Origin: Minisyncoccota bacterium
GTDB lineage: Bacteria > Patescibacteriota > Minisyncoccia > Phycocordibacterales > UBA1550
Assembly: GCA_023229865.1 (NCBI GenBank)
Contig: JALNYL010000003.1
Location: forward strand, 22,109 to 86,108
DNA length: 64,000 nt
Reading direction: 5' to 3'
The stretch's first letter is position 1. Every line of letters begins with the position of its first letter. The translations under genes were made by a program, and so were the position numbers. Below, piece by piece: positions 33,657 through 34,095 of the stretch. Under the pieces are notes generated by a model. The model made no database searches. It was not told the origin of the DNA and saw nothing but the letters and a program-made list of their open reading frames with translations.

Positions 33657-34095
33657 TTACCGTTGGTCTTTTTGAAGAGATTTGTAGAGGATATAGATTA
33701 ACGAAAACAAGACATAACCAACTGAAACAATCAGCGCGATAATATCTTTTTCAATATGCAAAAACTCATCACCAGAATACCAAGGAACCAAGATTAATAT
33801 TGCTATATACACATATATATAGTTCATTAATGTTATTTTCCATGACTCAAAAACATGTTTTTTTGTAAAGAACATAACTACAGACGGGATAAATATCGTA
33901 GCCCCAATCAACAATATTAATCTAAAATATTTTACACTACTCATACACACACTCCCCCAGGAAAGATTCCAGTTCATGCAGTAATCATACAAAGAACTCA
34001 TTGCGCTTATTTGAAACAAAATACCAAACCCAATAATTCCAACTATCCCAATAGCAAACGTTTTTTTGTGTAAACCAATTCAATATTTTTTGCAT
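33657..34095 (-). pseudogene. small membrane protein paralog P1, disrupted by frameshift in T7 (A7) homopolymer at 34061-34067
   Basis: conserved start MQKILNWFTQ at 34095 is out of frame with the 120-aa ORF 33657-34019; deleting one A restores a 146-aa protein collinear with P2. Confidence 0.55.

Follow-up and report, generated by a model that had tools for sequence, protein, structure and literature searches.

The window, by which we mean the whole 64-kb stretch of DNA that was analysed, carries on its minus strand a gene for a giant secreted protein of 1658 residues, a frame-broken small gene (P1) that starts 44 nt past the stop codon of the giant gene, an orphan 3' fragment of the giant gene, and an intact paralogue of the small gene (P2), in that order (Table 1). 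The minus-strand start of P1 reads ATG CAA AAA ATA TTG AAT TGG TTT ACA CAA AAA AAC GTT (ATG at 34095-34093), and its first 10 residues, MQKILNWFTQ, are identical to those of P2, as the original prediction had stated. The anatomy on the minus strand also confirmed the claim that the frame is lost within an A7 run to leave a 36-codon stub. Frame 0 reads ...TQKNVCYWDSWNYWVWYFVSNKRNEFFV to a stop at 33987-33985, and the stub has the translation MQKILNWFTQKNVCYWDSWNYWVWYFVSNKRNEFFV. The body of the gene is open in the +1 frame from 34079 to a stop at 33657-33659. The 120-aa TTG ORF (33657-34019) that had been placed in the +1 frame is indeed in that frame and forms part of these 140 open codons. 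The first canonical start in the body is TTG 34019, and NCBI starts its call at ATG 33977, giving a 106-aa ORF (MCK9344827.1, M0P64_01720).

Table 1. Positions of the genes, tracts and repeats discussed in the text, in the window and in loci carrying homologues.
Feature	Sequence	Position	Strand	Remarks
Giant secreted protein, 1658 aa	Window	34140..39116	-	NosD/beta-helix, M6-metalloprotease-like and OmpL47/HYR-type beta domains
Conserved leader and first 10 codons, P1	Window	34066..34106	-	93% identical to 33272-33312 upstream of P2
P1 stub	Window	33985..34095	-	ATG, 36 codons in frame 0, TGA end; family sequence in first 10-11 residues only
A7 run, P1 frame-break site	Window	34061..34067	-	T7 on + strand; codons 10-12; A6 or A9 in frame
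P1 body, +1 frame	Window	33657..34079	-	140 open codons and stop; covers each of the four predicted membrane helices
Second A7 run inside P1	Window	33858..33864	-	TKK codons, in frame
Orphan 3' fragment of giant gene, 99-aa ORF	Window	33345..33644	-	Homology to 34140-34397 begins at ~33602
P2, intact 145-aa paralogue	Window	32864..33301	-	Predicted 4-helix membrane bundle
(TTTA)7.5 coding microsatellite in P2	Window	33002..33031	-	FIYLFIYLFI of helix 3, in frame
Gene starts with -10-like box, examples	Window	16880, 17922, 19250, 25058, 44258, 46046, 50168, 63334
Orphan 5'-truncated copy	L001	2795-2971
Orphan 5'-truncated copy	L004	14954-15361
Orphan 5'-truncated copy	L009	4990-5934
Orphan 5'-truncated copies	L010	5126-5608; 6067-7026; 9036-9632
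Palindrome sites	L001	1890-1925; 2428-2470; 2735-2760; 3960-3990; 4915-4950		TGCGCAAGAACCGTTCTTGCGCA
Broken copy L013d	L013	3294-3698		A5T8, same N-terminal Lys-codon position as P1
Broken copy L009c (same sequence as L011)	L009	5989-6413		(TTTA)4; 5 units in frame
Broken copy L010c (same sequence as L019)	L010	5602-6032		(TTTA)6; 7 units in frame
Broken copy L012b	L012	5944-6401		Break between A7 and degenerate repeat

Removal of one A from the run joins the two frames into a single protein that is collinear with P2 (31-33% identity), as had been predicted; its length is 145 aa and not the predicted 146, which is the number of codons including the stop. Beyond this one-A deletion there is a second in-frame state, A9 (+2), and the run is out of frame at A7 and A8. 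The -1 frame meets a stop after 6 codons; the shift needed is +1/-2. An open frame of 140 codons would arise by chance with P ~8e-6 at the local base composition, which argues that the P1 body was under selection until recently. The product of this +1 frame shares 52-63% of its residues with P0002, a homologue of 143 aa that is intact.

P1 and P2 share a 41-nt block around the start codon that is 93% identical between them and includes a -10-like TAATAT, without a Shine-Dalgarno motif; after this leader and the first 10 codons the two genes diverge down to ~31% amino acid identity. A hairpin 3' of the P1 stop was no better than those of shuffled sequences (z = -1.4), and no known RNA element was matched in Rfam at E<=1 between 32500 and 34700. 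Most genes of the window likewise have no Shine-Dalgarno motif and have a -10-like box (TATACT, TACAAT, TAAGAT, TATAAT) that ends 5-12 nt before the ATG, an arrangement that suggests leaderless or very short-leader mRNAs.

Neither P1, P2 nor the orphan gave a significant match to a Pfam or NCBIfam model. A HMMER scan of 1.84 billion representatives with a profile built from P2, the P1 body and the close homologue P0002 identified 230 clusters at E<=1e-3, 58 of them at E<=1e-10, nearly all 128-148 aa long and matched end to end. The family pattern is M-N-x-I-x-N-W-F-T-[KR]-K-[KR], helix 1, a Cys-pair loop, helix 2, F-x-S-W-K-K, helix 3, P-W-Y-x-G-D, helix 4, Y-K-S-L-K-K, and the N-terminal helix belongs to its conserved core. 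The repaired P1 fits the family HMM end to end and has the length, motifs and genomic position of a member. The AlphaFold2 model of P2 is a four-helix membrane bundle (pLDDT 80.8) for which no fold match was found in the PDB. All genomic matches with an informative taxon label were from CPR/Patescibacteria (Paceibacterota, Yonath- and Nomurabacteria, Moraniibacteria, and records labelled Saccharibacteria); the record of one locus, L012, is labelled only 'uncultured bacterium'. Judged from sequence and model, the P1/P2 family thus comprises predicted small four-helix membrane proteins, found here in CPR bacteria only and unmatched by Pfam or NCBIfam models.

Elsewhere in the window (52995-55321, minus strand) there are four consecutive small membrane-protein genes, each of which opens with a near-identical 45-nt block, CTTTCTTTTAATGTGTAATGGTGGGATAATATTAGGAATGAAAAAA. 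This block is likely a promoter with a ribosome-binding site, and the 'MCNGGIILG' ORF starts called in these genes are probably artefacts. Of the four, those at 52995-53450 and 54899-55321 belong, as distant members, to the family of P1 and P2, and in both an A7 run directly follows the ATG.

The position of the family in the genome is highly regular. At 17 of the 17 loci with enough upstream sequence, the window included, the small gene lies directly after a giant gene or an orphan 3' fragment of one, and family members start 8-45 nt past the giant gene stop. The giant proteins upstream are ~1000-1650 aa long and have NosD beta-helix and M6-protease-like domains, or LCAT-lipase-like domains. 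The layout of an orphan with its own small gene is seen in the window, where the small gene is P2, and also in L001, L004, L009, L010, L012, L013 and L015. In the window, the last part of the giant gene and the sequence just past it (34115-34397) are repeated at 33320-33602 with 74% nucleotide identity. The orphan has 79% amino acid identity to the C-terminus of the resident giant protein and 88% to that of a full-length orthologue (P0007) in locus L004 of another MAG. Between the orphan and the resident C-terminus pS is 0.79 (saturated) and pN is 0.13, and on these figures the orphan is best described as a sequence under purifying selection and not as a decaying one.

Several further features of these cassettes were observed. 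In L001, a contig from Hainich, each cassette ends in the palindrome TGCGCAAGAACCGTTCTTGCGCA, sometimes preceded by a half-copy; its hairpin is stable (z = -4.7), and a role in termination or in recombination is conceivable. Nothing comparable to the palindrome was seen in the window, where a G7 run (C7 on the plus strand, 33600-33606) preceded by CCGCCCCCACCC lies exactly at the start of the orphan homology; the hairpin predicted there was no better than those of shuffled sequences. In the stretch 204-1470 of L021, an orphan C-terminal remnant (...VNGITQTDVVGVRFEE) is directly preceded by an IS200/IS605-type Y1 transposase gene, and the small gene after this remnant is the family member closest to the N-terminus of P1. 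The window segment with the giant gene and the small-gene cassettes (32800-39200) has 35-44% G+C, compared with 47-52% in the flanking cell-wall and cell-division genes, and may be an accessory or laterally exchanged segment. The translation of the 1658-aa protein has two strongly hydrophobic segments at residues ~940-1010, FFLILSLIALVLY... and LLWVTTALVWLVYLVFILRIFLG, and on account of these the protein may be membrane-anchored by an internal hairpin.

The locus resembles the orphan CT/immunity modules of CdiA and Rhs systems (PMC3150448, PMC3967940) in that a giant secreted protein gene is followed by a small gene, with downstream 5'-truncated copies of the 3' end of the giant gene, each with a small gene of its own. 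It differs from them in that their C-terminal tip is a variable toxin, whereas here the C-terminal piece is conserved (79-88% amino acid identity, pN 0.13), with an Ig-like beta-sandwich as its predicted fold, and the divergent partner is the small membrane protein. The repeated piece is predicted to be all-beta with weak Ig-like matches only, and no Pfam or NCBIfam matches to toxin or immunity domains were obtained. A toxin reading of this conserved piece is therefore not supported. A CDI/Rhs-type polymorphic toxin is disfavoured for the locus as a whole as well: the orphan layout is present, no cognate immunity protein was recognised with Pfam or NCBIfam models, and because the hallmark, a hypervariable toxin tip, is absent we do not class the locus with these systems.

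The frame break of P1 is shared by no homologue; L001a, L005a/b, L020, L021 and others all keep the frame there. The closest N-terminus for which DNA is available, that of the L021 member (P0016, WFTQKKTFVISIVG), reads ACA CAA AAA AAG ACG TTT where P1 reads ACA CAA AAA AA--CG TTT. In an alignment of 21 sequences, 20 of the 20 other members are one residue longer here than the A6 repair of P1, and a family HMM built without P1 scored the A9 (+2) repair at 151.6 bits and the A6 repair at 143.7 bits. A shorter spacer (WFT-RK-T) does occur in L015a and L016. The A-runs of homologues at this site are mostly interrupted, A5-A7 with AAG, AGA or GGG codons, and A9 is found in L001c only. No further disabling mutation was found in P1, which has 140 open codons and, once repaired, a full-length HMM match (144-152 bits). 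The original prediction had allowed for a genuine frameshift in P1, whether as a pseudogene or as an OFF state, and the evidence supports such an allele, which would be young if it is a pseudogene: the gene is disrupted where its homologues are intact, and an artefact is improbable, as discussed below.

P1 is one of several family members with a frame break of this kind. Among ~36 copies recovered in a family HMM scan of all fetched loci, five are broken at or next to a simple repeat, and in all five the match becomes full length again when a single unit or base is inserted. Four of the breaks lie within the repeat (P1, L013d, L009c and L010c), and that of L012b adjoins one. L013d reads ATG AGT ATG AAG AAA AAT TTT TTT TAA, and A6 or T9 would restore MSMKK(K/N)FFLIVSLV.... 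In a GTDB-representative unbiased DNA scan, 4 of 9 distinct targets were OFF. P2 itself carries a (TTTA)7.5 tract, which is the top-scoring tandem repeat and the sole tetranucleotide repeat in the 64 kb. The (TTTA)n sequence encodes FIYLFIYLF of helix 3, with the same peptide in all three frames, and the helix-3 tract recurs in diverged family members, unlike the N-terminal A-run. The notion that the family is prone to repeat-mediated frameshifts was thus borne out, with the P2 tract in frame and homologues from three other genomes (L009c, L010c and L012b) out of frame at theirs or beside it. A rate of 5 in ~36 copies is high for streamlined genomes (~94% coding density), and selection for switchability could contribute to it.

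These breaks raise the question of phase variation, in which the A-run would be a contingency tract that toggles P1 between ON (A6/A9) and OFF (A7/A8) by slipped-strand mispairing, diversifying the small membrane partner made alongside the giant surface protein, with the sequenced population mostly OFF. Several observations are consistent with this: the tract lies in the 5' coding region, there is a single lesion and the gene body is intact; family breaks at simple repeats are repeated, with L013d, L009c and L010c each one unit from ON; the (TTTA)7.5 tract of P2 is exceptional; and the homologous site in L001c has an in-frame A9. Runs of seven can vary, as with A6/A7 in inlA (PMC2831843) and, according to reports on homopolymer phase variation, in M. 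tuberculosis, including glpK (10.1101/717272, PMC10334774). Against a switch, no tract-length polymorphism appeared in any comparison made. The P1 tract is A7 in both the MAG and the Logan assembly, L009, L011 and three JGI samples (L023-25) all have the same OFF allele of L009c, the N-terminal fragment of which is on at least 26 contigs, and the OFF allele of L010c is identical in L010 and L019. Among ~15 billion proteins we found neither the A6 nor the A9 product of P1, nor the guessed ON alleles of L009c, L010c and L013d; OFF fragments alone were present in this collection for L009c, L010c and L012b. A metagenome DNA pattern scan with a variable gap at the P1 A-run gave no matches, nor did a genome-contig scan with P2 alone or a plasmid blastn search; when P2 and the 120-aa ORF were looked up as encoded genes, no exact match came back, and a profile word-index search returned 15 proteins with no ON variants.

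Compared with recognised contingency genes, P1 has a simple tract within the ORF whose length sets the frame (A7, codons 10-12). At A7 the tract is shorter than a hypermutable length, near-identical genomes showed no length polymorphism in a comparison of assemblies and protein collections, whose sensitivity to minority alleles is limited, and the tract is not conserved in orthologues beyond what their codons require. No mismatch-repair genes were found in the 64-kb window, where an 863-aa ORF is UvrA. Contingency loci of Haemophilus, Neisseria, Campylobacter, Helicobacter and Mycoplasma, and homopolymer phase variation in M. tuberculosis including glpK, are like the P1/P2 family in that an in-ORF repeat number sets the frame, and in that the gene families affected are associated with the surface or the membrane and comprise several paralogues. 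The (TTTA)n of P2 and its homologues resembles the classic tetranucleotide type. They are unlike P1 in that length heterogeneity within a population defines them, whereas the A7 of P1 is below the usual A/T thresholds and its host is an uncultured CPR (Paceibacterota) bacterium.

The closest analogue of the P1 lesion is the 5' poly(A) run of Listeria monocytogenes inlA, which is in frame at A7 and out of frame at A6 (PMC2831843). In both genes an A-run of 6-7 nt in the first dozen codons sets the frame and the out-of-frame allele yields a tiny stub, and some inlA lineages interrupt the run with a G (AAGAAAA), as do the relatives of P1. The two differ in that inter-strain length polymorphism has been measured for inlA, whereas none was found for P1, in which A7 is the OFF and not the ON state. 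The reversion frequencies reported for inlA are 5.5e-7 and 3.9e-8, with A7 to A6 at ~3.9e-8 (PMC2831843), so that the change required of P1 is slow where it has been measured. The claim of a phase-variable OFF switch at P1 was therefore not upheld, given the short A7, the mostly G-interrupted runs of orthologues and the lack of an A6 or A9 product among ~15 billion proteins; we consider a working switch here possible but unsupported, and rather unlikely. That the family genes are true contingency genes, in which A/T runs and the helix-3 (TTTA)n switch paralogues ON and OFF and P1 was caught OFF, seems to us a little more doubtful again.

The original prediction had also offered a sequencing error, in which case the true genome would have A6 or A9 and P1 would be intact. 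Homopolymers are the classic place for indel errors, and a MAG is a population consensus. A Logan assembly of run SRR18595301, made with a different assembler from a read set that may be shared with the MAG, contains a 1081-bp contig (L003) that is 100% identical to window positions 33495-34575, including the A7; no paper mentioning this run was found. The window has 25 A/T runs of at least 7, of which 17 (two of them A8/T8) lie inside unbroken ORFs, conserved cell-wall and cell-division genes among them, and the rest are intergenic apart from that of P1, the only one to break a gene. There are 21 other A7/T7 runs in the window, so the A7 of P1 is not exceptional in itself. A run of seven is short for an Illumina consensus error. 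Because a second assembly is identical and the runs elsewhere leave their ORFs unbroken, a homopolymer artefact is improbable and the A7 of P1 is probably real.

We also give very little weight to a shortened but functional P1 of 106-120 aa without helix 1, restarted at ATG 34001, ATG 33977 or TTG 34019. Such ORFs are called by NCBI, by Logan and in the ORF list, and termination-reinitiation is conceivable with the TGA of the stub 7 nt before ATG 33977. However, helix 1 and the WFT-KK motif are conserved family-wide, almost all of the 230 clusters are full length, the internal starts have no ribosome-binding motif, and loss of one of four helices would be expected to invert the topology of the remainder.

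Least credible of all is recoding, in which +1 ribosomal frameshifting or transcriptional slippage would yield full-length P1 from the A7 template: CAA AAA AAC permits tRNA-Lys to re-pair in the +1 frame and RNA polymerases do slip on A/T runs (PMC5574713, PMC5009743), but the break is conserved in no homologue, the A site has no rare, slow or stop codon, Rfam showed no element, tracts known for efficient slippage are longer than this run, and transcriptional errors in A/T runs, whose frequency climbs exponentially as the runs lengthen, are for the most part +1 insertions and rarely deletions (PMC5574713), an insertion giving only A8, still out of frame. A -1 ribosomal frameshift on A_AAA_AAC, a heptamer of the -1 type, was rejected, as the P1 body is in the +1 frame and the -1 frame soon stops; with the shift needed being +1/-2 and the break not conserved, recoding is unlikely in general. 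The poly(A) frameshifts of endosymbionts (PMC5574713; reviewed in PMC5009743) are similar to P1 in having an A-run break in an otherwise intact gene of a small, reduced genome, and are dissimilar in that their tracts are of ~9-11 A, whereas P1 needs a deletion or +2 at A7 and its break is not conserved.

Based on these comparisons, we favour, with some reservation, the interpretation that P1 is a recent fixed null allele of a redundant paralogue, broken at a Lys-codon hot spot that is typical of the family, although its single lesion and 140 open codons would suit a reversible OFF state equally well. The lesion would be a small length change in the Lys-codon A-run after the conserved M..I.NWFT motif, caused by replication slippage or a small deletion. 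Its likeliest route would be a net loss of 2 nt from a QKKT-coding CAA AAA AAR ACG, and the alternative a gain of 1 nt in a QKT-coding A6; either is an ordinary event in such a run. Translation from the conserved ATG would then end after 36 codons and the four-helix protein would not be made. We infer that this loss is tolerated because intact P2 lies 0.8 kb downstream in a tandem cassette, and the lesion would be young since the rest of the gene is undamaged. Reversion by slippage should be possible in principle and rare at A7, which would make P1 an inactivation at a mutational hot spot and not a fast switch.

In kind the P1 lesion is familiar, one more case of a 5' homopolymer frameshift, and taken alone it is a routine annotation matter: the NCBI call M0P64_01720 (106 aa) needs a flag that marks it as a frame-broken copy of a 145-aa gene (146 codons with the stop). 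Full-text searching with CPR and phase-variation terms combined brought up no account of phase variation in CPR bacteria, and cassettes of a giant-gene 3' fragment and a small membrane gene with recurrent repeat frameshifts in CPR were not found in the literature searched. What gives P1 its value is the family to which it led, small membrane proteins seen only in CPR bacteria and without a matching Pfam or NCBIfam model, whose genes are strictly linked to those of giant secreted proteins, form cassettes with orphan 3' fragments and have been broken repeatedly at simple repeats in independent genomes. We regard this family-level pattern of cassettes and recurrent repeat frameshifts, read from assembled genomes, as a lead only. 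If the contingency-gene reading is correct, the combination of contingency repeats and orphan 3' cassettes would amount to a programmable surface repertoire in episymbionts and to the first phase-variation system described in Patescibacteria. Tract-length heterogeneity, if seen at the level of reads, would make these the first contingency loci in ultrasmall episymbiotic bacteria, and would provide a handle on how CPR episymbionts vary the surface with which they contact their hosts.
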